Below, piece by piece: positions 3,901-61,924 of a stretch of 64,000 bases of DNA. A model generated the notes under the pieces. It was not told the DNA's origin. It searched no databases and worked only from the letters and a program-made list of their open reading frames with translations. Origin of the DNA: Vicugna vicugna. Taxonomy: Eukaryota. A program made the position numbers and the translations under genes. The stretch is taken from NCBI GenBank assembly GCA_013265495.1, contig MU058017.1, positions 186,001-250,000 of the forward strand, given 5' to 3'. Each line of letters starts with the position of its first letter. Position 1 is the first letter of the stretch.

Positions 3901-5194
3901 GTATCAATTCAAAACTAGTGTTTTAAAATATCTATTGTCCCTTTATTTACAGGGGCAAAAGAAAAAACTAATTTTATATTAAAAGTGTACACTTTTAATT
4001 TTTTTTCCTCTACTCCAAACAGGAAGGAAAACTTAAAATATTTCCTATGTTTTTGTTCTTTTTGTTTTTCTTCTGCAATTCTAGCTGGCTCATTCCTAGA
4101 TCCAGATTTGAACATAGTGCATCAGTAATTATGGAATTCTTCTCTGTGTGTTTGCTTCCTCAAGCATATATACAGAGATAAGAAGTTTGTTTATAAAATG
4201 TCCTTTCACAATTTACTGCTTGTGTGTTTCTCTTTGTTGGTTGTTAAACTGCCATGCATTAGGCAATAATACAAAAGAAAATAGCTAAACCCTATGTATC
4301 TCTAAAATGTCACTAGTCTCCCAGACATGTGGTCCCCACTCCTTCAGGAATTGTTTGTATAAGCGTCTGTGGCAGAAATTTATTGCCAACCTGCTGAATT
4401 TATGGAAAAGAATGTTTTTGTCTAGATGTGTATCAACATTCCAGGGTCTAGTGGTGTTCCTCGAGGCTAGCACTGTGCTAAGCCCATAGCCAATGCATGT
4501 TTGGTGCTAATATATTTATAAAATTTAAAAATGAGGAAGAAATAAAGAGCACGAATAGGATAACAGAAAGCAGAACAAATGAAAATTACATTTTCTTGGC
4601 TGTCATTAGAAAGACCTAAAATTAAATGTAAGGTATCAACTCATATAGTCATTATAAAGTTAAAATTAAGTAATTTGTATTTATGTATTAACTTAATTTT
4701 TCTTTAAAAGAGTAACCTATGCCTTATGGGCAAGGCCTTTGAGACAAGTTTTAAATGTTAATATTTTCATTTTTTATATCTTAAACTTGAACAAAAAGCT
4801 CCATCAGTGAGCTAAGCACTATATAGTATTAGCAGAGAATGAGCAAGATTGAATTTTACAGCACCTGGCTAGGGAAGATGCATGCTAATTTTAAAAAAGT
4901 AGCAAGGGAAGAAGCCAGGTCCCTTGAGGAAGGACACTGCAATACAATGGCAAGCATATACTTTAGAAATTTCCCCAGTCCTTCCTCAATAAGGCTTTTC
5001 TTGAGTAATTATAAACTGAGGAAACAGAATACATAGAAGTTTCTGAAGGGTGTTAGATACAAGGTCCAAGTAAACACTGAGTTAAATACCTAATGACACA
5101 AAGTGTGGGAAAAAAAAAGGGCATTTCAGCAGGGACACTGCTTTCCATGGACTAGGGAGCCATAAGAAAAATATATATACTAAAAAACAATCTA

Positions 5195-5575
5195 GATACT
5201 AACTACTATATGTAAAATAGATAAACAACAAGGTTCTATTGCATAGCACAGAGAACTATATTCAATATCTTTTAATAACATATAATGAAAAGAATATGAA
5301 AAGAATATATATATATACATATACATATAACTGAAACATTATGCTGTACACCAGCAATTGACACAACATTGTAAATAGACTATACTTCAATTAAAAATAT
5401 TTTTAAAAGCAATCTAAAAAAGAATATGAAAACAAATATATGTATGTATATGCATGACTGGGACATGGTGCTGTACACCAGAAACTGACACATTGTAACT
5501 GGCTGTACTTCAATAATAAATAAATAAATAAATAATAAATAAATAAATAAATAAATAAATAAATATTAAAGACAA
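5195..5575 (+). mobile_element. Two tandem, heavily 5'-truncated L1 3' ends (5195-5400 and ~5418-5575); the second has a (TAAA)n tail
   Basis: Both contain tgctgtacaccag.aa.tgacac..attgtaa...tacttcaat. (TAAA)n runs 5517-5564. Confidence 0.9.
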
Positions 5576-5817: not shown

Positions 5818-6063
5818 TCATTTATTTATTTATTCAACAAATATTTATTCATTGTTTAAAATATATCAGGCTCTTACAGTCTAGGTAGAAAGACCATAAA
5901 CCTAACAAATAAGTGAATCATGTAGTATCTTAGAAGGCAGTAAGTGTTATGCAGAAAAGGAAAATTAAACCAGGTTAAGGGGTGTTAGGAGTGCTAGGAT
6001 GAAAAGGTGGGCTATACTTTTAAATAGGATGATTGGGGTGGGTCTCATTGTAAAGGTGACATT
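5818..6063 (-). mobile_element. L2 3' fragment, cut off by the downstream L1
   Basis: Starts catttatttatttattcaacaaatatttatt (L2 tail, reverse strand), then gctcttacagtctag and aaggtgacatt. Confidence 0.7.
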
Positions 6064-6064
6064 A

Positions 6065-8630
6065 GAGAGGCCAAGATGGCGGAGTAGAAGGAGCCAGAGC
6101 TCACTTCCTTTCATGAACACACCAAAATTGCAAATAACAACAGAACAATTATTGCTAAAAAAGACTGGAACCTAATAGAAAAGATCTTCCATAACTGAAA
6201 ACATAAAGAAGAAACCATAAGGAAATGGGTAGGAGGGCTGATTTGCAATATAATCAAATCCCCTACCTACCAGGTGGACGACCCAAACACTGGAGAATAA
6301 TTACATTGCAGAGGTTCTCCCCCGTAAGTGAGAGTTGAGAGCCCCACATCAGGCTCCCTAGCCCAGAGATTTGGCACTGAGAATAGAAGCCCCTAGAGTT
6401 ATTTGGCTTTGAAGGCCAGCAGGGCTTAACTGCAGGAGCTCCATGGGACTTGGGGAAAAAGAGACTTCACTCTTAAAGGACACATGCAAAATCTTGCACT
6501 CACTGGGACCAAGGGCGAAAGCAGTAATTTCATAGGAGCCTGGGTCAGACCTATCAGCTGTTCTTGGAAGGTCTCCTGGGGAGGTAGCTTGGTGGGGACA
6601 CATGTGGCTCATCCTAGGGATATAGACATGGTGATGGACAGATTAGGGAGTATTCATCTGCATGAACTTTCCTTCCTGGAGGCAGACATCTTGCTTGGGT
6701 CATTAGCACCAACACCTAGATCCACCCAACAACCATAGGATCCAGTGCTGGTACAACCCAGGCCAAATAACTAACTGGGTGGGTACACATACCCAACCAT
6801 CAGCAGAAAGGCTGCCTAAAGACTTTCTGAGCCCACAGGTACCTCTAAATATGTCCCTAGACACAGCCCCACCCATCAAAGGGCCAGGACCCACCTCCCC
6901 CCACCAGTGGGCAGATAGCAATCAGCCTCTCCCACGAGGAAACCTGTAAGCCTCTAGATAAGCCTCACCAACCAGGGGGTAGACACCAGAAACAGGAAGA
7001 CTACTATCCTGCAGCCTGTGGAATAACTCCACAAATGCAGGCCAGACTCTACCCTCGGAGCAGCCAGCCTCTGGCCCATGAGTAACAAGAGGGAAGTGTA
7101 CTGCTGTGACTCATAGGACATCTCCTACAGAGGGCCACTTCTTCAAGGTCAAGAAACATAACTAACCTACCACATACATAAAAATACAAATAGAAATTCA
7201 GACAAAATGAGGCAGCAGAGGAATATGTTTCAGACAAAGGAACAAAATAAAATCCCAGAAGAACTAAGTGATATGGAGATAGGCAATCTACCCAAGGAAG
7301 AATTCAGACTAATGATCATAAAGATGATCAGAGAATTAGAAGAATGGGTGCATAGAGTGAGAAATTACAAGTTTCTAGCAAAGAGTTACAAAATAGAAAT
7401 AACAACTTCCAACAGAGTGAAAAATACAATAACTTAAATGAACAATACAGCAAAAGGAACCAACAATAGACTAAATGAGGCAGAAAAATGGATCAGTGGG
7501 TTAGAAAACAGAGTAGTGGAAATCACTGCTGCAAAACAGAAAAAAGAAAAAATAATGCAAAGAAATGAGGACACTTTAAGAGACCTCTGAGACAACTTCA
7601 AGTTCACTGATAATTCACATTACAGGGGTCCCAGGGGGAGAAAAGAGAGAGAAAGGGATAGAGAACATATTTGAAGAGCTAACAGCTGAAAACTTCCCTA
7701 ACTTGGGAAAGAAACAGTCACTCAAGTCAAGGAAGTGCAACATCCCATACAGGATTAACCCTAAGAGGAATACAATGAGACATTTGTCAATTAAAATGAC
7801 AAAAATTAAAGCTACAGAGAGAATTTCAAAACTCCCAACAAACAAAATTCCAGGACTAGATGGCTTCATAGGAGAATACTACTAAACGTTTAGAGAAGAG
7901 TTAACTTATATTATTCTGAAACTATTACAAAAATTTGCAGAGGAAAGAATAGCTCCAAATTCATTCTATGAGGCCACCATCACCCCGATTCCAAAACCAG
8001 ACAAAGATATCATTTGAAAAATTGTAGGCCAATATCACTGATGAACTTAGATGCAAAAATCCTCAAGAAAATACTAGCAAATTGATGCCAGTAATACATT
8101 AAAAGGATCATATACCATGATCAAGTGGGATTTATCCCAGGGATTCAAGGATTTTTCAATATCTGTAAATCAATCAATGTGATACACCACATTAACAAAC
8201 TGAAAAATAAAACCCATATAATGATCTCAATAGATGCAGAAAAAGCTTTTGATAAATTATATTATCCATTTATGAAAAAAATCCTCCAGAAATTGGGCAT
8301 AAGGGAACATACCTTAACATAATAAAGGCCACATATGACAAACCCACAGCTAACATCATACTCAATGGTGAAAAGCTGAAAGCATTTCCTCTAAGATCAT
8401 GAACAAGACAAGGATGCCCACTATCACCACATCTATTCAATATAGTTTTGGAAGTCTTAACCACAGCAATAAGAGAAAAAAAGGAAACAAAAGGAATCTA
8501 AACTGAAAAAGAAGAATTAAAGCAGTCACTGTTTGCAGATGACAAGATACTATACATAGAAAATCCTAAAATCACCACCAGAAAATGACTAAAGCTCACC
8601 AATGGATTTGGTAAAATTGTAGGATAAAAA
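6065..8630 (+). mobile_element. LINE-1 5' portion: 5'UTR, partial ORF1, internal deletion at ~7826, ORF2 reverse-transcriptase region; decayed
   Basis: Starts gaggccaagatggcggag (YY1-site L1 5' end). ORF1 ATG at 7207 (MRQQRNMFQTKEQ...). ORF2 peptides PGLDGFIGEY and [26 protein letters not shown]; ctgtttgcagatgac (LFADD) at ~8530. Stops and frameshifts present. Confidence 0.95.
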
Positions 8631-10254
8631 CACATTTATTGTACCATCCAGCCAAGGGTTCAAACATAAAACATTTCAAAATTTAAGGAGAATATGAAAA
8701 CATCAGGCAATACCTAGAGTACTACTATAAATATAGCCTTTACCTATAGTAAAAAATTTAGCCATTCAACCATTTTGGTCATCATCCCAGTTTTTCTTCA
8801 CACTTGGAGGCTTGGGCTCACCAGCTGACTTTGCCATGATAATCTGATTCACTCTAAGTATAGTGACTGTAGCATTAGTAGCCAGTTTGATAGCCCAGTA
8901 TTTTCTCAGGTAAGTATCTTTAATGCCAGCTTTCAACATGTCCTTTACAGCAGGAACTTCAGCCTCAATATCTAATCCAAACATTTTTATTTCCTTCTTG
9001 ATGTACTGCATAAAGTTTAGAGATTATTTCATTGGCCTAAACTCCACAGTTTTCTGCCAGTACCCAGGAAATAGCTTTGAATGTCTCAGCAAACTTTTTA
9101 ATGGCATACTATTCAAGTCTCCATATGATGTGATCTGTTTGACTAACTCAACTTCTGTTGCTCCACCTCCAGGTACAAGATGTTTATCTCTTGTGAGAAC
9201 TTTGAAAGTATTAATACCATCATCTACTGCTTTTTCTATATTATCCATCATATTGTCTGTAGAGCCTCGAAGCACTATGATAAAAATGGCACCATCTCCC
9301 TTTTTGTGCTTAAAAACAACCACCTGCATATCTCCAACTCGGATAGGTCAACATTGCCAGAATGTCACATTTCTTCAAGGACAGAAGGAGTCAGCCTAGG
9401 AAGAGTGGTAGCACCAACTGTTTTACATAGTCTTCTGATATCCAATTTTGAGTTCTGCCTCACCAACATGATACTGTATTTGTTTGCAAAATGAAGAGTC
9501 ATGTCTGACATGTAAAACAGTTGGTGCTTCTCACACACAAGAGCAAATCAAAACCACTGCTGATACTGGTGCAAATATAACAGGTGGCAAAGTGTCAGAC
9601 ATGATTCTTCATTTACTAAAATTCATCAATCCTTCAGCAGTCTTTATCAGTACCATTCCCTTAGTTTCTGTTCTGCCATCAAAAGGACAAAAGTACACTG
9701 CTATTTTTCCATCTTTGACAGCTGTTACATTACCTTTGGTTTCCTTCTTAAAAACCATGCCATGCAATACCGAAAAGGAATAGATACCAGAACTGAGAAT
9801 CTTACAAACTCTGATGTCATCAACACTGAAATGGCAGGAATCAGGAAAAATAGATACATATGCCTGAGCAATAAGCTTGGCTGGAAACACTTTATTTACC
9901 ATACTCTTTACTCATTATGGAACTATGGAGGAGAGATGACACTCCATCAACATCCTGAAGGTTTTTTGCAGAACAACATACCAAGTCAGGAAGAATCTCA
10001 TGGGCTTTTCTGCAGGATATTTTAAAACTTTCTATGACTCTGAAACTCACAGGCCAACTCTCAGAAGCTCTTCAGCTAATTCCAAAAGAGCTCCAGCAAA
10101 AAGCAGAACAAAATTTCTGCCATCTCCAACTTCTTGCTCTTGTGTGTGAGAAGCTATTATGATCATTTTTGCAGCAGGATGCTGTACTTCTAGCTCACTT
10201 AAAATAGCTACTGCATTGATTGTTACAAACAACTTCTCCAAGTGGTTGATAATA
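8631..10254 (-). pseudogene. CCT8: Processed pseudogene of CCT8 (TCP-1 theta): 5'-truncated, frameshifted, internally rearranged
   Basis: Minus-strand peptides match CCT8 in order with no introns: INHLEKLFVT..LEVQHPAAKMI..QEQEVGDG.NFVL.FAGALLELAEELLR; HF.VD.IRVCKIL..G..SVLHGMVFKKET.G; QVVVFKH..DGAI..IVLRGSTDN; VPGGGATEVEL; GLDIEAEVPAVKDML.AGI.DTYL.KYWAIKLATNA..IIMAK..G.PKPPS.KK.WDDDQN. Stop at 8766-8768, 3'UTR, AATAAA at 8635-8640 (-). About the first 55 codons are missing. Confidence 0.96.
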
Positions 10255-10682
10255 GTGTCATTTGTAGCAGCATGGATGGACCTAGAGATTATCACACTAA
10301 ATGAAGTAAGTCAAAGACAAATATCATATGATATCACTTATACGTGGAATCTTAAAAAATGATACAAATGAACTTATTTAAAAAACAAATTCACAGACAT
10401 CAAAAACAAACTCATGGTTACCAAAGGGGAAAGGGGATGGGGATAAACTAGGAGTCTGGGATTAACAGATGCACACTACTATACATAGAACAGAGAAACA
10501 ACAAGGATCTACTACATGGCATAGGTAACAATATTCAATATCTTGTAATAACCTATAATGAAAAAGAATCTGAAAAAGTAAAAATATATATATATATGTA
10601 ACTGAATCACTCTGCTGTACACCTGAAACTAACACAACATTGTAAATCAACTATACTTCAATAAAAAATAAACAAAAATTTT
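10255..10682 (+). mobile_element. LINE-1 3' end (ORF2 terminus, 3'UTR, A-rich tail), followed by a short repeat of L1 3' sequence at ~10689-10745
   Basis: gtcatttgtagcagcatggatggacctagagattatcacactaaatgaagtaagtc ... tgctgtacacctgaaactaacacaacattgtaaatcaactatacttcaataaaaaat. Confidence 0.93.
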
Positions 10683-11004
10683 TAAACGCCATATGACATC
10701 ACTTATATGAGGAATCTAAAAAAAAGACACAAATGAAATACTTACTATTTATAACTTAGTTGACTGATTTCTTGAATATGTATAAGCACATTTGACTGTC
10801 CTTTATGATTGGATTACCCCATTCTGTTGATTCTTATTTTGTAGTTGGTTTTATTCCTTTGATAACTATGTAAGTTTAAAAAGCTAAAGCTCTAATCTGT
10901 TCCTAGAAACAATGATCAGTACATTTATGTAAACTAAAATATGTGCAGTATACTATATATATGTATTTACATGCAATATAATATATATGTGCAGTTAAAC
11001 TGTC

Positions 11005-13448
11005 TTCAGAGCTAAATACACAAATAGACTGAAAGTGAGGGGGGAAAAATAATTTCTTGCAAATGTAAATGACAAGAAAGTGGAGGTAGCAACATTCAAA
11101 TCAGATAAAGTATATTTGAAAAGAAAGTCTATAAAAAAGAGAGAAGGGCATTATAAAGACAAATGGATCAATACAAGAAGAAGATATTACACTTGTTAAT
11201 ATGACTGCTTTTAATACAGGAGCATCTAAATGCATAAAACAAATATTAACACACATAAAAGGAGAAACTGACAATAATACAATAACATCCCATATACATC
11301 AACAGAATGACTATCCAGACAGAAAATCAGTAAGAAAACAGTGGTCTTAAGAAGACCAGTTGGAATTAATAAATGTCTACAGGACATTATATCTAACAAC
11401 AGCAGAATACAGTTTTTGCAAGTGCATATAGAACGTTCTAGGATAGATCCTATGCTAGGACACAGAAGTCTCAACAAATTTAAGAGAAAAACAGTATCAA
11501 GCATCGTTTCCAATCACAATGGTAGTAAACTAGAAATCAGTCACAAGAAGAAAAATTGGAAAAACTCACACTTGAAGACTAATAAACACCATGCTAGTGG
11601 AAAAAAAGAAAAAACAGTCAGTGAAGAATTCCAAGAGGAAGTCAGAAAATACCTCAAGACAAATAAAAATGGAAACATACTTTCCAAAACTATGGAAGGC
11701 AGCAAATGTTCTAAGAGGGAAGTTTGCAGCAATACAGGCCTGCCTTAAGACACAAGAAAAATCTCAAATAAACAACCTAACCTGCTATCTAAAGGAATTA
11801 GAAAAAGGAACAATGAACAAGGCCCAAAGTCAGCAGAAAGAAAAAAATAATAAAGATCAATGAAACTGATTTGCTTTTTTTTTATTTTTGAAAAAATAAA
11901 CAAAATTGATAAACCTTTGCCAAGGTCATCCAGAAAAAAAAAAAGAGAGAGAAGTCATATAAAATACGAAATGAAAGAGGACAAAAAACCACCAATATCA
12001 CAGAGATACAAAAATATATATAACCAAATACTATGAAAAATTATATCCAACAAATTGGACAACCTAGAAAAAATGGACACATTTCTAGGAATTTGGCCTT
12101 CTACAAATTGGACTTCCAGAAATTTTAGATTTCTACAATTTTAATTTCTAGAATTTCAAGACTAAATCAGAAATAAACAGACATTCTCAACAGGACCAAT
12201 TACTAGTATTGAAACTGATTTGTAATAAAAACCTCTCAGGAAACTAAAATCCTGAACAGGATGGCTTCACAGGAGAATTCTACCAGACATATAAAGAAGA
12301 GCTAATATCCATCTTTCCCAAGCTATTCCAAAAAATTGAAGAGCATGGAACATTCTCAAATTCATTCTACAACTCACCATTACTCTGATACCAAAACCAG
12401 ACAAAGACACTACAAAAAAAAAAGGAAATTACGGGATAGTATCTCTGATGAACATAGATGTAAAAATTATCAATAAAATACTAGCAAACTGAATTCACCA
12501 ATATGTAAAAAGGATCATACATCATGATCAAGTGTGATTTATTCCAGGGATGCAAGAATGGTTCAGTATCCACAAATTAATCCATGTGATATACCACATT
12601 ACAAAAAGGATAAAAATTACATAATCATTTCAATAGACAGAGAAAAAAGCATTTGACAAAATTTAACACCCATTCATGATACAAATTCCCATTAAACTGG
12701 TATAGAGAAAACATATCTCAATATAGGAAAGATCATTTTTGACAAATGCATAGCGAACATCATACTCAACAGTGAAAAGCTTGAAGCTTTCCTTTTAAAT
12801 AAGAAACAAGACAAGGATGCCCATTCTCACCATTTCTATTCAACATAGTATTAAAAGTCTTAACTATAGCAATCAGACAAGTAAAAGAAATAAGAGGTAT
12901 TCAAACTGGAAAGACAGAAATAAATTTGTCACTATTTGCAGATAGCATGATACTATATACAGAAAACCCATAAAGTCTCCACCAAAAAAAAAACCCTTTT
13001 AGAATAAGTGAATTCAGTAAAGTTGTAGAATACAAGATTAATATCCAGAAATGTGTTGTTTTTCTATACACTAATAATGAATTATCAGAAAGAGAAAGCA
13101 GAAAAAAAGACCGTTTAAAACTGCATCAAAAACAATAAAATACTTAGGAGTAAACTTAAGCACAGGGTAAAAGACCAATACTGTAAAAACCATTAAACAC
13201 TGATGAAGGAAACTGATAATGTTGCAAAGAAACATCATTTCATTATAGGTGTTCCTTCCATGGGTTGGAAGAATTAATACTGATAAAATGGTCATACTAC
13301 CCATACAATTTACAGATTTAATAAAATCTCTGTCAAAATACCTATGACATTTTTCACAAAACTAGAAAAAATTATCATAAAATTTATATGAAATCACAAA
13401 AGATCCAGAATTGACAAAGTAATCATGGGTAAAAAGAACAAATCTCGA
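11005..13448 (+). mobile_element. LINE-1 ORF2 segment (endonuclease through RT), truncated at both ends, decayed
   Basis: agactgaaagtgagggg (EN domain), SRIDPMLGH motif, ggatggcttcacaggagaattctaccagac, ctatttgcagat. Ends abruptly at aaaaagaacaaatctcgag, where the next L1 5'UTR begins. Confidence 0.93.
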
Positions 13449-15624
13449 GATAATTCACAAGTGGCCACATAGGAAGATCCTAACCTCATCTCTTCTTACA
13501 AACACATCAAAATTACAACTAATTACCACAACAAAAGTTACAGAAAATTACAAACACATCAAAATTACAACTAATTACACAAAAAATTACTGTTGATAAG
13601 TAAGACTGGAATCTCCAGAAAAGATCTTCTACAATTAAGTATAAGGAAGGAACAACAATGAGGTGGAATGGAGGAGTGGAGTCACAGTTTGGTTAAGATC
13701 CGTAACTTTAAGTGGTGATCCACAAACAGGAGAATAATTACAATTGCAGAGATTCTTCTCAAGGAGCAAGGGGTCTGAGCCACACATCAGGCTCTCCAAA
13801 CTGGCAGTCCTGCACCAGGAAAACAAGCCCTGAGAACATCTGGCTGTGAAGGCTGGTGGGGCTTACTTTCAGAAGACCCGGAGGGCTGTGGGAAATAAGA
13901 CACTCCACTCTTAAAGGATGCACACAAAATCTCACATGCTCTGGGGCCCAGATCAGAAGGAGTAATTTGAAAGAAGCCTGAGTCACACCCACCTGCTGAT
14001 CTTGGAGAGGCTTTGAGAGAGGCAGGAGGAAACTGGAGGTAACACTGAGAACACAGACACTGGAGGTAGCCATTTTGGGGAGCTTATTCTACCATGTGGA
14101 CACTGGTGCTCACAAGCACTAGTTTGGAATCTTCCCTCTAGCTTATTGAACTTAGGTCCAAGCCCTACCACACACTGACCCCAACAGAGTGGGACACCTC
14201 AGGCCAAGCAACAAACAAGGTGGGGACATGGCCCCACCTACCAACAGGCAGGCTCCCAAATGACTCTTTGAGACCACAACCACCTCTGGACACTGCCCTG
14301 TCCATCACAGGGCCCAGAACTCAGTTCCACATATCAGAGTGCAGGCACTAGACTCGGCTGAATGAGGAGCCCGAAGTGTCAGGGCCCTGAAGCCAGATAC
14401 CCCATGACCCAGCTCCATTCACCAGTGGGTAGATAGCAGCCTAAGGACACAGTGGGCACCAGCTGTGCCTACCTGGGGACTGACACCAGCCCCAAGATTT
14501 CTGCTTTCCTGAAGTATATTACCAATAGACCCAGCCCACCCACCAGCAGGCTGGCACCAGCCCCAGGATCCCACTGGCCCCCACCCCAATCACCAGCAGA
14601 TCAAATCCAGCTCTGGGACACCTTGAACCCAACATCCAGTAGCCCCAGGATCTAGCTCCACTTATCAGCTGGCTGACAACAGCTTCAGGAACCCCTGGGC
14701 CTTGCCACTAGAGACCCTGGGATACATCTCCACCCACCAGTGAGCCATCAGTAGCCCTTGGATCACTTGGTCTCCAGCCCTGGCACCAGCCCACCAACAC
14801 CAGCTCTGAGAGACATTGGACTCCTCAGCCAGCTGCCTCACTAGGCCCACACGACCTTTCAGATATCTGAGACCTGCAGCCAGCCATATCAAGAACACTC
14901 CCACCCACCAGCAGGCTGAAGCTAGATCCAGGAACTCTGGTCCTTCAACTACCTACTCCAGAACCTGGCTCTGCTCACCAGTGAGGCAAAACTACCCAAG
15001 GCCCCCTCCACAGCCAGCTACATCATGACACAGCCCTACCAACCAGTGGTAGACAGAATCTGCACAAGGCAGGGCATAGCAACCAACCCAGCCAGTGCCC
15101 AGCCATGCCTGGAGACCACCCACAGCAATCAGCCCACCAAAACAGAAAAACTCATGCGGCCTACATAAGAGATGCCCCTAGAGAATATATCTCTGGTGAC
15201 CAGAGGGGGAGTTCTGGGATGCAGAGGATATCTCCTACAAAAAGTCACTTCTGCAAGATCAAGATCAGGTAGCATAACCAACCTACCAACAGAGAACAAA
15301 AGCAGCATATTAGGCAAAATGAGATGACAGAAGAACATTTTCCAAATGAAGGAACAAGATTAAAAATCCCAAAGAACTAAATGAAGTGGAGACAGACAAT
15401 CTATCCAACAAAAAGTTCAAAGAAACAATTGCAAAGATGATCAAAGAATTAGGAGAAGAATGGATGAATAGAGTAAGAAGTTAGACTTTTTAACAAGTAG
15501 TTATAAAATATAAAGAAGAATCAAGCAATAAAATGAGTAAACTAAAAAATACACAGGAAGAAATCAACAGTAGATTAGTTGATACAGAAGAACATAGTGA
15601 GCAGAAAATCACTGAACCTGAATA

Positions 15625-19600: not shown

Positions 19601-20254
19601 ATATGAACTAGCAATTATACTCTTGGTATATATCCAAAGAAAACAAAAATTCTAATTCAAAGAAAGATTCATGCACCCCAATCTTTATAGCAGCTTCATT
19701 TAACAATAGTCAAGATATAGAACTAATGTAAGTGTCCATCAGCAGATGAAAGGATAAAGAAGATACACATACACACACAGAGACAATGGAATACCACACA
19801 ACCATATAAAAGACTGAATTTTGCCATTTGCAACAACATAAATCGTCCTGGAGGGTATTATGCTTAATGAAATAGGTCAGACATAGAAAGACAAATACTG
19901 CATGTTATCACTAATATGTGGAATATAAAAAATAAAATAAATATAACAAAACAGAAACATACTCACAGATATATAGAACAAACTAATGGTTACAAGTGGG
20001 GAGAGTGAAGTGGGTAGGGGCAAGATATGTGCAATGGATTGAGATACAAATTACTATGTATAAAATTAATAAGTAACAAGGATATATTGTGAAGTACAGG
20101 AAAACATACCCATTATTTTGTAATAACTTTAAATGGGGTATAATCTATAAAAATACTGAATGATTATGTTGTACACCTGAAACTAATATAATACTATAAA
20201 TCAAATATACTTCAATTTTAATATTTCTAAATTCAAAAAATAAATTGTTAAAAA

Positions 20255-21110
20255 GAAAAAATGAGCAAGACCTTAAATAGATATTTGTCCAAAGATCTAT
20301 CAGTTCCCAATTGGCGCATGAAAAAGAATTCATCATCATCTATCATTAACAAAATGCAAATCAAAACCATAATGAGATATCATTTCACACCCACTGGGAT
20401 GACTTCAATCAAGAAAATGTAAAGTAACAAGTATTGGAAAGGATGTAGAGAACTGGACTCCTCATAGATTGCTGATGGGAATGTATCATGGTGCAGTTGC
20501 TGTAGAATACAGTTTTGCTATTCCTCCAAAAGCTAAATATAGAACTACCATGACCCCATTCCACTTCTAGATATATTTTATTTCAAGAGAAATGAAAACA
20601 TATGTCCACATAGCAACCTGGACACAGATTTTCATAGGAGCATAATAGCTGAAAGATAGAAATAACCCAAATGTTCATCTATGGACTAATAACTAAACAA
20701 ATTATGGTATATACAAACAATGGAATATTATTCAGCTACAAAAAGGAACAAAGTACTGTTACATGCACCAAGTTGGACAACCTCAAAAACATTATGGTCA
20801 GTGAAAGACGTCAGATACAAAAATCACATACTACATGATTTTTTTATACGATATACCCAGAATAAGCTAATCTATCAAGATATAAGGCACATTAAAATTT
20901 ACCAGGAGATAGACAGAAGAAATGGAGCATGATTACTTAAGATATTTGAAGTGTTTTATGGGGTGATAAAAAAAGTTTCAAAACTAAAAAGCACTGGTAG
21001 TTGTTCAACATTATGAATATACTAAATACTACTGCATTGTACCCTACCACTGAATAGCACACTTTAAAATAGTTAATTGTATATTATGTAAATTTTACCT
21101 AAAACAAAAA
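20255..21110 (+). mobile_element. Older L1 (L1MB/MC-like) 3' end
   Basis: aaatgcaaatcaaaaccataatgagatatcatttcacacccactgggatg; aatggaatattattcagctacaaaaaggaac; cactttaaaatagttaattgtatattatgtaaattttacct. Confidence 0.85.
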
Positions 21111-27570: not shown

Positions 27571-28272
27571 TGCTGTGATTCTCAGCCAATAGAACTCCAC
27601 CCGGGAAGAGCACGGATTCTCCTCCTGTGTCTCCCTCACCCCTCCAATGCTATTTGGAGACGCAATCTGCTTACTTCTGTGAGAGTTATATAATAAGTGG
27701 GAAGTGAAGACAGCTGAGCCTGCTCTGAAACCATGATAAATAGCCCCGATGTCCTGATTGCGCCTTCCCTATTGGAGGCCAAGGAACTCCATACAGACAT
27801 GGGAAGGATTAACTGGTACTCCAGCTGAGTGCAAACTGGCACAAGGGCCAGGCACATGTAGGCCACGTGAGGTTACTCTGAGACATCTCCTTTCTGGGAG
27901 GACCTGGATTTCCCCTCTCCCATTACAGTGTCAGATTCCTGAGTCCCAGAGGCCCCCAGTGCAGCCACAACAAGCCAGGGTGCCAGACACAGTGGTAAGT
28001 AGCAGGAACCTAACCTTGACTGTATCAGGACTCACTCCAACTCTTAGTAACTCGGGCAACTCACTTGGCCACCAGCACTGTTTTCTCCCAACTTTGCTAA
28101 AACAGCCAAGTCTGTGATTGCTGATGCCTGGTAGCGACATTTCCATTCTAGGCCAGGGACTATGAAAGATAATGCTTAAAAAATATAAAAGAGACAATAT
28201 GATTAATGTTTTTGTTAAAAGTATTTGTTTTAGTGTTAAAACATCATTAAAGTGGCTGGAGTGGTAGATAAA

Positions 28273-29250
28273 TTTTGGGCACTCTGTGACTAAAGGGACA
28301 CACCACCCATGTCCCCAGCTGATGTGAGGCCAAACTCTTCAGATACCAGTTAACCATGTGGGAAGAATGAAGGCTGAAACTGGCAAATGACAAGAGTATC
28401 GCCTCTCACAGGCCAAACCCCACACCAGAGAGATGTACTGAGCCTTCCATGAAGTTACCCAGACTGGGCCTCTTGTTTCTTTCTGAAATGCGTGTTCCAA
28501 CAGTATTAGACACGTTCTGGAAACAAGTACATTTCCAAATGATGAGTTCTGAGGTGAAGATTTGTCAGTCGTATGGTAATGTGGATAAAAAACAAATATT
28601 TGGTGGTAAACTGCCTGGCCCTTAAAAAGACACTACAAAATTTGGTTTGACTGCAGACGAAGTTAATGATCAAGGTTTTGTGTCTAATTCATTGTCACAG
28701 AAGGGAAATAACCCTCCCTTATTTTTGTTTGTTTTTTCTTGCTGCATGTTTGATGCCACATTAAAGCATACCAAAATAGCAATTCAGCCTCAGAGATAGA
28801 TTTTTAATGCAAGACTCCTCATACCAGATTGCTCTCTTCCAACATCTGTTGGTATGTTTTCCAGCCTTATCTCCCCATCCAAAAAATAAAATAAAAAAGA
28901 GAGTTCAGGATCTAAACATACTTTAACTCTATCTCATTGAATAAAACCATTGAGTAAACACTATTCAAGTGTCCGGAGGGACTGATTACTTTTTGGCCTC
29001 TGTGACTTAAGGGATGTACCACCTGTGTCCCCAGCTGACATGAAGCCAAACTCTGCTCAGATACTGGTACTGAATTGGCAAATGACAGGAACATCGTCTC
29101 TCACAGGCCAAACCCTGCACCAGACAGTTACCCAGACTGGGCCTCTCATTTGTTTCTGAAATGCATGTTCCAACAGTATTAGACACGCTCTGGAAGCAAG
29201 GATATGTTTCTGAAGGGAGTTCAGGGGTGAAGACTTGTCAGTAGTATGGT
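28273..29250 (+). repeat. Diverged direct duplication: copy 1 ~28273-28577, copy 2 ~28991-29250
   Basis: Shared collinear blocks: ctctgtgact.aaggga, gtccccagctga, tggcaaatgaca, ctctcacaggccaaaccc, agttacccagactgggcctct, tgttccaacagtattagacacg, ggtgaaga.ttgtcagt.gtatggt. Confidence 0.92.
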
Positions 29251-34082: not shown

Positions 34083-34226
34083 GTTTTTTTTTTTTTTGGT
34101 TTGTTTTTTGGGAGGGGGGAGGTAATTTGGTTTATTTATTTATTTGTTAGAGGCACTGGGGATTGAACCCAAGACCTTGTGCATGCAAAGCACGCACGCG
34201 CTACCACTAAGCTACACCCTCCTCCC
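34083..34226 (-). mobile_element. tRNA-Ala-derived SINE, Vic-1 type (camelid)
   Basis: Minus strand reads ggagggtgtagcttagtggtag..tttgcatgcacaaggtcttgggttcaatccccagtgcctc (A and B boxes) + aaataaataaataaaccaaattacctccccc + A tail. TSD tcccaaagg at 34074-34082 and 34227-34235. Confidence 0.9.
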
Positions 34227-34659
34227 TCCCAAAGGTATTTATCATCATAACACAGGACAAATTGAACTCACTTAACAAAAGTTAAGACCATAGCACTTCT
34301 GGCTCTTTGACTATCAAAAATTAGCTTGTTAAGTACTTAGGTAGGATTGTTAGCAATACTGCGATTGCATTTGATATTTTGACACATAGCACAATATAAC
34401 TGTAATAGGAAGAATAAGTTATTCTGAGCCCTGGGCATGTCTGAGTTGTGTTCAGATTTTAATAAATCCTTGACTCTAGTGTCAGAAAATAGAAATGGTA
34501 TTGGGATGGCAACAACCTATATCATTTTTATATGCCAGCATAAATGCATAAACTTGAGACTACACAATATTTTTTCTAATTGTAGGTAACGTAGTAGATA
34601 TTCCATAAATAAAAATGTTAGCTTTTTTTTTTTCATTACCCTATTTAAAGTCCACTTAG

Positions 34660-58488: not shown

Positions 58489-61123
58489 TTGACCTTCCCA
58501 ATCACTCTTCGGCATATGTTCATATTTAGAAACTACTGACAGTTCTTCATTGCCTACAGAGTGGATACCCAAGCCTGGCTTTCAAGGGTTTTGACAATCA
58601 GGGCCCCATCTACCTTCCCCTCCTTACTTCCACTACTTCTTTTCACTCCAGCCAGACTGATGGACTGCTTGTTTCTTGGACGTGCCTCCATTATCCCTCC
58701 CCCCAAAGACTCTTCCGATTCACTTTCTAACACCCACATCTTTCTTCCTATGTACTGTTGACATTTCACCTTTGAATCCGCAGTATCCTTTGCCCAGAAA
58801 ATGCTTAACAAAGATTCTTTTGTTGAAAAAGAGAAAGCAGAAGAGGTGATTAGAGGAAGAGGAAGAAAAGGAGGAGGAAGAGGAGGAAGATTTAAGAAGA
58901 AAAAGCAGAAGGTGGAAACAGTGGAGAATGGGTGATTGTGTTTTGTTAATGACCATAATGGTGGAATAGTACCAGTGATGGGTTCAAAAAAGAAACTGTA
59001 AAGTTATGAATGCGTGGAAGGAAGCCCTGTGGCCGTAAGTATGTCTTGTATCTTTCATGAGCTTTCTATTTGTTTTTTATTCCTTGGGAAAGCAATTAGG
59101 CAAATAAGAAACATTAAGAAATTGGTTTCCATTCATTTACTGAGCTATTTTTTCCTGTGTAGAGTAATTTGAATAAACCACAAATTAATTTTCTATCAAT
59201 GGTGCCAAAACGTCTTAGAGCACTTTGGGCTATTCAGAGTGGCTATTTGAAACTGTATTTATTTTTCAGGGCAATCTTATTGAAAGTGAAAATCCAGCAT
59301 ATTGGTATATTTAAAAGAAATGCCAACCTGTTTTCACTTAGGACTTCGTGTCTTATTTTCCCCAAGTTGTATCTAGGCAGCATATTAAATTATCTCCCTT
59401 TTAAAGAAAACTTTATTTGTAATGTTGAAAAAGTTAAGGTAGGAAGAATTCACAAAAGAGTCCTATGAAAAAGTGTCAGTTCATTTGAAGGAAGATTGCA
59501 TAAGGTAGTGGTTAACTAAATGTTATTAACCTCAACCAGAGTGTAAGTAAGACTGAACACTGGGATTTTTCTTCTGACTTCAAGTTTCCATGTCTTATCC
59601 CCAAATCTGTATTTCTAAGCATTTCCAATATTCTTGATGGGTATTCCATCAAGGGTATTACTATACTGAACGATGTTTCCTCCAATATTTCCCAAAAGGA
59701 AAGGTAACAAGTGTTCCAGAGCAAAGTATTGTCTGTCCCTATATACAAAGAACAGGGTTCCCCGTGTTAAGCACTGGACCCAAAGCAACTGCTTGTGCTG
59801 TTTCCTTGGTATCAGGCATACCCAGAGGATAAATTTAGCCTGGAGATACTATGAGGCAGCTTGTGGGAGGGCCGCAGTGATCTTGCTTTCAGTGGCTAGA
59901 AAAGGGCAAGACCTTTGGAGAGTAGGACTAAACCAACATGTTTTGATGTGTAGATACCAAAGTCAGTCACAATATCTTTAAACTGGGTTATTTGCATTCC
60001 ACCTAGATACATTATCATCAAAAGCTGATTCAAGTCTGTATTTTCCAGGCCTCCAATATTGTACCATGAATTACAAATAAATTACAGATAAAAATCAGAT
60101 ACAAATACCCGACACTCCCTTACAAGATTAAAACTATAATTCAGGATTTAATATCAACAATTCTTGCACTGATACATCAAGTTCTTTTAGAGTAACAATG
60201 CTATCTTATACTTGTATCACATTTTGTATTTCACATTCATTATTTCATAGTGAGTTGTTTCTGTGATTATCTTGTTAAACTTTTGGAAAACGTGTGATTT
60301 CACATTGCCCATATTTTTATTTAATACATGTTTAATTCGGCAAGCACTAATTGAATACCCACTGTCTTCCAAACTCATGTAACACTCTGAACACACTAAA
60401 GTTAACCAAAATGCTTCTGCATCACCACCTTAGACAAATGATCCATTTTATCACAAATCTCATGTCTATCACACTAATTAACTATACTTTCTTACATATT
60501 TTCAGTAAAAGAAAGGAGGTTAAGAACATACCTAAATCAGTCAAGCTTTGGATGACTAAGATTTTCTTTGGATATGATTCTATAAACTGGTGTAAGCTTA
60601 CAAGCTTTTCTGTTTCAAGTAACTAACTGCCCATCTCAACTCACCAAACGTCATAGAAGAGCTCTGATCTCATGTTCAATGTAGATGAGCAAAATTGTGT
60701 GGCAAGAAGGGATCAGTAACACTGCTTCCTTTCACACAAGGGAGCATTTTCCCCTGATACATTGGGTTTGCATTCATCTGCGGGTGGTTCCCATAGCCAG
60801 AAGCTATCCTTATATGCCCTCAGCTTTTATAACTACTTGCTGCCCACTCTTCTTGTTCCACAGTCACGCCTTAAGGTCTTTTAACCAACTTTTGTCTCCC
60901 AGTTGACCCTTTGCCAGGAATACACCCTAGTCTCATCTTTTTCTCCTAGATAAGCTGCTCTTCTCCATAGACAGTATGTCCAAACAATACCAATTTGTAT
61001 TCCATGACTTTTCCAACAACCCACATCCTCTTAAATGGATGTTTTACTCATATGATCACGATGCTTTTGTTTCCATAGGATTCTCTGAATTGGAGAGTTT
61101 AGAGAGCAATGAGCAGTGCCCTG

Positions 61124-61892
61124 TTTTTCTGTTTTTTTGTTGTTTTGTTTTTAAATTGAAGTATAGTCAGTTTACAATGTTGTATCAATTTCAGGTGTAC
61201 AGCATAAAGTTTCAGTCATTCGTATACATATATATGTTCATTTTCATATTCTTTTTTACTATATGTTCCTACAAGATATTGAATATAGTTCCCTGTGTGG
61301 TATAATAGAAACTTGTTGTTTGTCTATTTTATATATGTTAGTACTTGCAAATTTCAAACTCCCAGTTTATCCCTTCCCACCTCCTTTCTCCTCTGGTAAC
61401 CATGTTTGTTTTCTATGTCTGTGAGTCTGTTTCTGTTTTGTAAGTTTATTTGTGTCTTTTTTTTTTTTAGATTCCACATACAAGTGATAGCATATGGTAT
61501 TTGTCTTTCTCTTTCTGGCTTACTTCACTTAGAATGACGATCTCCAGGTCCATACATGTTGCTGCAAATGGCATTATTTTATTCTTTTTTATTGCCAAGT
61601 ACTATTCCATTGTATAAATATACAGAAATTTAGGTTGTTTCCATGTCTTGGCTATTGTATATAGTGCTGCTATGAACACTGGAGTGCATGTATCTCTTTC
61701 AATTAAGGTTCCCTCTGGATATATGTCCAGGGGTGGGATTGCTGGATGATATAGTAAGTCTATTTTTAGTCTTTTGAGGAATCTCCATACTGTTTTCCAT
61801 AATGGTTGCACATTCCCACCAACGGTGTAGGAGGATTCCCTTTTCTCCACAACTTCCCCAGCATTTATCATTTGTGGACTTTTTAATGATGC
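61124..61892 (-). mobile_element. 5'-truncated L1 3' end with clear TSD
   Basis: ORF2 C-terminal peptide at 61602-61871 ([32 protein letters not shown]). TSD cagtgccctg at 61114-61123 and 61893-61902. Confidence 0.95.
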
Positions 61893-61924
61893 CAGTGCCC
61901 TGGTTTTTAAATCATAGGCTTAAG

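Follow-up and report, generated by a model that had tools for sequence, protein, structure and literature searches.

The window analysed here, a stretch of 64,000 nt from the Vicugna vicugna assembly GCA_013265495.1 (contig MU058017.1, positions 186,001 to 250,000; all coordinates below count from its first letter), contains at 8631-10250 on the minus strand a spliced copy of the chaperonin gene CCT8, comprising codons 57-547 and the 3' untranslated region (UTR), which lies antisense in a decayed L1 retrotransposon. The L1 pieces on both sides of the copy are colinear, and relative to a near full-length older L1 (13447-20240, the neighbour L1), where the equivalent positions are 18308 and 19817, 1509 nt of L1 were lost and 1620 nt gained at the CCT8 site, a count that assumes both L1 pieces to be one element. 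An initial annotation of this DNA had proposed such an exchange, with L1 resuming past CCT8 and about 1.5 kb of L1 swapped for about 1.6 kb of CCT8, and the tail-less CCT8-in-L1 structure is real. Its features are as follows (ORF, open reading frame; RT, reverse transcriptase):

6063-7827 (start approximate), plus strand: decayed 5'UTR of the L1 and the beginning of its ORF1 (ATG at 7207), 68.7% (5'UTR) and 65.9% (ORF1) identical to the neighbour L1
7820-7835, plus strand: internal L1 loss of about 1.5 kb, joining ORF1 straight to the RT region (neighbour L1 15981 to 17494) over an A-rich overlap
7828-8626, plus strand: L1 ORF2 RT-region piece ending in GGATA (8622-8626), amino acids 473-727 of the ORF2 protein P0134, with 5 stops and 2 frameshifts
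8631-8768, minus strand: stop codon of CCT8 (8768-8766), then its 3'UTR; AATAAA occupies 8640-8635 and the tail-less end lies 4-10 nt further
8772-9511, minus strand: CCT8 pseudogene codons 297-547, 80.4% amino acid identity, 2 stops and 3 frameshifts
9612-10250, minus strand: CCT8 pseudogene codons 57-270, 5'-truncated, 80.7% amino acid identity, 1 stop and 2 frameshifts
10251-10682, plus strand: L1 3' piece with ORF2 tail, 3'UTR, AATAAA (10660-10665) and A-rich remnant, 76% identical to 143-573 and 75.6% to 61137-61578
10690-10737, plus strand: short L1 fragment truncated at both ends, directly after the L1 tail, 88% identical to 10325-10372 and matching another L1 copy at 47/56 positions

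The best PDB matches of the insert are TCP-1 theta (E 4.5e-150), and its coding part as a whole shows about 80% amino acid identity to CCT8, with 3 stops, 5 frameshifts and a deletion of 12-13 nt near 9190. As expected of a processed pseudogene, codons 57-547 are continuous apart from an internal patch described below, and no intron is present across either end of the segment of amino acids 130-188 (which is missing in 18 of 113 CCT8 proteins) or across the point after K528, where CCT8 isoforms diverge. Since the codon match runs on without introns over these isoform junctions (130/188 and 528), the copy was spliced in origin. The CCT8 copy is real and widespread: 14 of the 24 public sequencing runs listed, from 6 studies and under 2 organism labels, contain 0.88-0.94 of 200 sampled words; CCT8-only words account for 81% of the stretch, outer-junction words for 3% and patch words for 4.6%. 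The element is dead and shows no sign of function; sampled-word shares of 0.05-0.28 in RNA runs do not count as evidence of expression, and the hairpin predicted at 9400-9630 (z -3.28) is a by-product of inverted copies, not evidence of function. A metagenome scan with the CCT8 protein P0012 returned 80 loci, the best at 84% and 81% amino acid identity and none of them mammal-like, and was not used. No report of this locus as a camel CCT8 pseudogene was found in the literature covered, most subscription papers lying outside the search.

With regard to the surrounding L1, the RT piece shows 67.5% identity to P0134 over 252 codons, and the ORF1 piece has a Pfam Transposase_22 match at 7607-7822 (E 1.9e-6), while 7207-7599 gave no Pfam match. 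No protein relatives of the ORF1 piece were found at E 1e-10 among 189 candidates, so that it carries no subfamily label. The L1 loss at 7827, which removed the end of ORF1 and the endonuclease region, is about as large as the one beside it at the CCT8 insert.

At the left junction the alignment of L1 ORF2 ends with GGATA at 8622-8626; the A-run that comes next (8626-8630) can be assigned to either L1 or CCT8, in agreement with the stop near 8630 given by the initial annotation. The antisense CCT8 sequence had been described there as following directly and ending a few nucleotides past AATAAA, and this too was borne out: beyond the signal at 8640-8635 the copy reads TGTG and up to five T, without poly(A). 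Poly(A) tails usually begin 10-30 nt past the signal (Onozawa and Aplan, PMC5110952). At the right junction CCT8 and L1 have AA (10251-10252) in common, extended to AAT when codon 56 is taken to be Ile, an overlap of 2-3 nt that is ungapped against five L1 relatives in the window, whereas the longer 'ataat' overlap of the initial annotation needs a gap and was rejected.

The search for a target-site duplication (TSD) returned none of at least 8 nt at the CCT8 junctions, the CCT8 copy alone giving only an offset TTGTAG repeat, and for the whole L1 and for CCT8 plus the 3' L1 piece no candidate surpassed 8 nt with a mismatch. Within this search, which on controls recovered TSDs of 14-15 nt for two of four L1s and missed the other two, the locus is TSD-less, as had been stated. 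In the present orientation the CCT8 cDNA is the top strand and was primed at the left junction, where a canonical insertion requires a top-strand TTTT/A nick and poly(T). The top strand there reads GGATA followed by A's and carries no TTTT/A endonuclease site on the primed strand; because it is A-rich and T-free, this L1 end is not such a nick, and could instead pair with a U-run. On the other side, no YYYY/purine endonuclease site lies 7-20 nt into the right flank; all it offers there is ATTT/G at 13 nt, which turns up at 359 of 3606 neighbour-L1 positions (about 10% by chance), and the right flank is thus a poor right-hand TSD copy. Three marks of a canonical retrocopy, the poly(A) tail, the TSD and the TTTT/A site, were not found at the CCT8 copy. 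Lack of both TSD and poly(A), possibly by secondary loss, and loss of target DNA are features that it shares with endonuclease-independent and class 2 insertions.

The insert is not one clean piece, as it contains a younger inverted patch at 9510-9614, which, like the second L1 loss at 7827, was missed in the initial annotation. The patch consists of three pieces:

9510-9528, plus strand: inverted copy of 9410-9428 (codons about 324-330), 19/19 identical
9526-9546, plus strand: inverted copy of 10134-10154 (codons about 89-95), 21/21 identical, including a derived ACA at the invariant Met92
9544-9614, plus strand: CCT8 codons 279-303 inverted in place

The last 22 nt of the third piece duplicate 9489-9510 (21/22 identical), and codons 271-278 were lost. 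Followed along the CCT8 sense strand, the path leaves at codon 270, runs backwards from codon 303 to 279, takes up codons 95-89 (21 nt, from about 590 nt away) and 330-324 (19 nt, from about 80 nt), and returns at codon 297; the three measurable jumps have overlaps of 3, 3 and 1 nt. Non-parental bases are present in both members of the duplicates at Met92, Ala298, Ala301 and Tyr304, each of these codons being invariant in 113/113 CCT8 proteins, and the duplicated pieces show a single mismatch in 62 nt (for pieces of the insert's own age, P would be 0.002-0.00007, or 0.008-0.0006 on 50 nt). These shared pseudogene mutations and the single difference indicate that the patch was copied from aged DNA, long after insertion. 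It is made of reverse-complement copies of nearby DNA from the aged locus, in a short-range template switch. Much later than the insertion, then, a polymerase would have jumped four times over short distances at 9510-9614, probably switching templates on the aged DNA, leaving codons 279-303 inverted and the 19- and 21-nt copies inserted. [quoted passage not shown]

To compare ages we used as mutation load the share of changed codons at columns at least 95% invariant among the references. The CCT8 copy has 67 of 348 such codons changed (0.19, confidence interval (CI) 0.15-0.24) and the L1 RT piece 25 of 137 (0.18, CI 0.12-0.26), loads that cannot be distinguished (Fisher p 0.90); two neighbouring L1s have 38/141 and 33/141. 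In simulation a load of 0.19 corresponds to about 9% DNA change in the CCT8 copy, which at the neutral rate we assume would amount to some tens of millions of years. The L1 thus appears not much older than the CCT8 insert, in a coarse test whose L1 figure includes lineage change. An early origin fits the residue pattern of the copy, which lacks the five residues (161, 204, 231, 346, 388) that mark the dromedary record P0009 off from close relatives and also lacks L121 and K137 of hippo, whales and ruminants; this is a soft indication, P0009 being a gene model with an odd N-terminus. The initial annotation had suggested testing whether the L1 pieces on either side of CCT8 share subfamily and age. 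The load of the RT piece compares with 1 of 8 invariant codons in the 3' piece, where 8 is all that can be scored, and no subfamily link was obtained, so that the view of both pieces as one element rests on colinearity. In a 3'UTR tree the 3' piece falls between the older neighbour and younger copies, nearest to 5194-5400 (19%), with no link to the 5' piece. Comparing the pieces with 120 L1 proteins by tblastn was of no use for subfamily assignment, since summed scores double-count and the tails are too short. A search for the repeat upstream of 6063, which we take to be an old L2, resuming downstream gave z -1.9 to 1.6 for five test regions, with a positive control at only z 2.0.

The best single reading of the locus, to which we give a probability of about 0.5, is tail-less capture of a CCT8 mRNA at a DNA break inside the L1, an event of a rare though known kind. 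It is favoured because there is no tail, no TSD was found, 1.5 kb of L1 was lost, the right overlap is 2-3 nt, and an A-rich L1 end faces a U-run. A break and resection in the then-young L1 would have left a top-strand 3' end of GGATA and A's, which could have paired with the U-run just past the AAUAAA of the CCT8 mRNA rather than with its poly(A) tail; a reverse transcriptase, most likely L1 ORF2p, would then have copied 1.62 kb, as far as codon 56/57. The cDNA would have rejoined L1 1509 nt onward over the 2-3 common bases seen at the right junction, and as a sub-case this rejoining may have taken place during integration of the L1 itself. We consider it improbable, though worth stating, that the whole of 6063-10682 is one germline event, in which the second-strand enzyme would skip 1.5 kb and later swap to the CCT8 mRNA, copying 1.62 kb from just past the poly(A) signal before rejoining the L1 cDNA 1.5 kb on. 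If true, this would account for why CCT8 lies antisense and starts close to the end of its mRNA, why the L1 pieces are colinear and why the ages are equal, and the cargo, lying between L1 promoter and L1 poly(A) signal, could itself have been copied on; a literature search on template jumps during second-strand synthesis brought up only unrelated papers. The mRNA-templated break repair put forward by the initial annotation stands as the best reading rather than an established one, the locus having been reworked at the DNA level after insertion.

The lead of mRNA capture over its main competitor is slim, and rough prior arithmetic makes the two routes similar. That competitor, to which we give substantial weight, though less than even odds, is an ordinary retrocopy made by target-primed reverse transcription (TPRT), with poly(A) and a TSD or target-site deletion, which landed antisense in the L1 and was later trimmed by one or two deletions. 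Together these would have taken the tail with a few terminal bases of the mRNA, as well as the TSD and 1.5 kb of L1, and the left deletion would have joined over the common A-run. Retrocopies of the conventional sort are by far the more frequent, and homopolymer tails break easily. DNA-level remodelling after insertion is demonstrated by the patch, further deletions are present (about 1.5 kb at 7827, 12-13 nt near 9190), the roughly 9% decay of the copy gives ample time, and the distance of ATTT/G from the right junction, 13 nt, is typical of a TSD. On the other hand, trimming needs a breakpoint that, out of 1.6 kb, hit the last 20 nt or so of the mRNA, and as the right-flank site is a poor endonuclease site, present by chance at 10% of L1 positions, a second deletion would probably be needed. 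Several observations weigh against capture. Because the locus was remodelled at the DNA level after insertion, its outer junctions cannot be assumed original, and given the patch, the undated loss at 7827 and the missing TSD of the whole L1, the absence of tail and TSD may be secondary. The TSD search had limited sensitivity, as its controls show, and a weak direct repeat, TTGTAG (8617-8622 and 10262-10267; 8/10 when extended), is present near both junctions, offset and inside L1 sequence. The microhomology measured, 2-3 nt, is that of the right junction, and the sampled-word shares do not prove the junctions, since so few of the words fall on the outer junctions and the patch. The age test is coarse, with an older neighbour L1 that differs only at p 0.09, and the tree and tblastn tests do not decide whether the 5' and 3' L1 pieces are one element. 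More generally, the patch, which the shared pseudogene mutations make datable, shows that old retrocopies get reworked, so that at such an age missing tails and TSDs cannot alone prove an unusual insertion route.

The two-RNA twin priming that had been offered alongside break repair fits poorly, and we regard it as quite unlikely. It would join a new 430-nt L1 cDNA (bottom strand) and a CCT8 cDNA (top strand) head to head in an older L1, for which the geometry and the 2-3-nt overlap are suitable; nine two-transcript insertions, opposite-orientation ones among them, have been described (Mendez-Dorantes et al., PMC11702581). L1 relatives read GATAC|AAAAT at the left junction, a bottom-strand TTTT/G site, but chance alone places a site of this kind no more than about 5 nt away from 441 of 3596 L1 positions. 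Moreover, the examples shown in PMC11702581 kept TSD and poly(A), and this route predicts a TSD of 12-18 nt and ORF2 resuming after the L1 tail, whereas no TSD was found, ORF2 does not resume after 10682, and the L1 RT piece is not detectably older than the CCT8 copy. Slightly less credit still goes to a DNA-templated patch, in which CCT8 would have been copied by synthesis-dependent strand annealing (SDSA) or MMBIR from a decayed CCT8 pseudogene elsewhere, in the same young event as the internal patch. This would account for the shared derived bases without two events, and SDSA-like segments occur at some loci among the non-classical L1 insertions (NCLI) of Sen et al. 2007 (PMC1920257), but it gives no reason for an end beside AATAAA and turns the equal L1 and CCT8 loads into coincidence. 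An assembly artefact at the junctions or patch is hardly credible: although two of the three patch copies match sequence close by at 100% identity, the 14 runs carry most of the sampled words, the flanks are old, diverged L1, and the one-base difference in the 22-nt duplicate would not arise from mis-assembly.

Every candidate route is already described in print, and the locus is a real fossil of a known kind. NCLI resemble it in lacking a TSD, in truncation at both ends, in target deletion and in short junction overlaps; 3 of 21 NCLI loci lie inside older L1s and one has an 18-bp piece of GPD2 mRNA (PMC1920257), and the endonuclease-independent insertions of Morrish 2002, as summarised in PMC4859970, belong to the same group. 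Unlike NCLI, the CCT8 locus carries spliced cellular mRNA, 1.62 kb long, rather than L1; it is old and reworked, and it was judged from the filled site alone, whereas NCLI calls rested on the pre-insertion allele (PMC1920257). Class 2 templated sequence insertion polymorphisms (TSIPs; PMC5110952) similarly carry a patch derived from a distant RNA, lack TSD and poly(A), and show deletion and microhomology, and spliced cDNAs are among TSIP donors in general. They are, however, described there without a poly(A) signal while the CCT8 copy keeps AATAAA, and experimental insertions measured 73-414 bp against 1.62 kb in this old copy, seen as a filled site. Insertions from two transcripts (PMC11702581) also combine mRNA and L1 pieces in opposite orientation over microhomology, but the CCT8 locus starts with a colinear sense L1 5' part. 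As in RNA-templated double-strand break repair by Pol zeta (PMC12065846), an mRNA would have served as template at a break; that pathway uses the homologous transcript of the broken locus, with intron loss, whereas CCT8 and the L1 are homologous over no more than a few bases. At Cas9 breaks, L1 insertions that depend on RT show an enrichment of the RNA 3' end and have joins of 0-6 nt (PMC9237045). Tail-less, TSD-less patching is known for L1 RNA and for short patches, and no kilobase mRNA case was found in a limited literature search. If its junctions are original, the CCT8 locus would be a long, old germline case of a cellular mRNA patching a break without tail or TSD.

Several other features of the window were noted. 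Beyond the 48-nt L1 fragment, the roughly 250 nt at 10745-10990 have no clear match within the window. The neighbour L1 is nested in the ORF2 of another L1 (11004-13440) and has a 14-nt TSD with one mismatch (13430-13443 / 20249-20262); its 5'UTR contains, by eye, a short tandem duplication at 13503-13585, with about 35-45 nt repeated. Upstream, two L1 3' ends stand in tandem at 5194-5560, followed by an (AAAT)n run, and an antisense, 5'-truncated L1 at 61114-61907 has a 15-nt TSD, also with one mismatch. The youngest L1 piece of the window matches, at 89% identity, an L1-derived part of a protein record from Camelus bactrianus, which marks the window as camelid. A direct duplication of about 300 nt (28239-28577 / 28956-29250; 72% identity, with internal gaps) is not L1-like in self-alignment, and a tRNA-like short interspersed element, presumably of the camelid type, lies at 34110-34230 on the minus strand.

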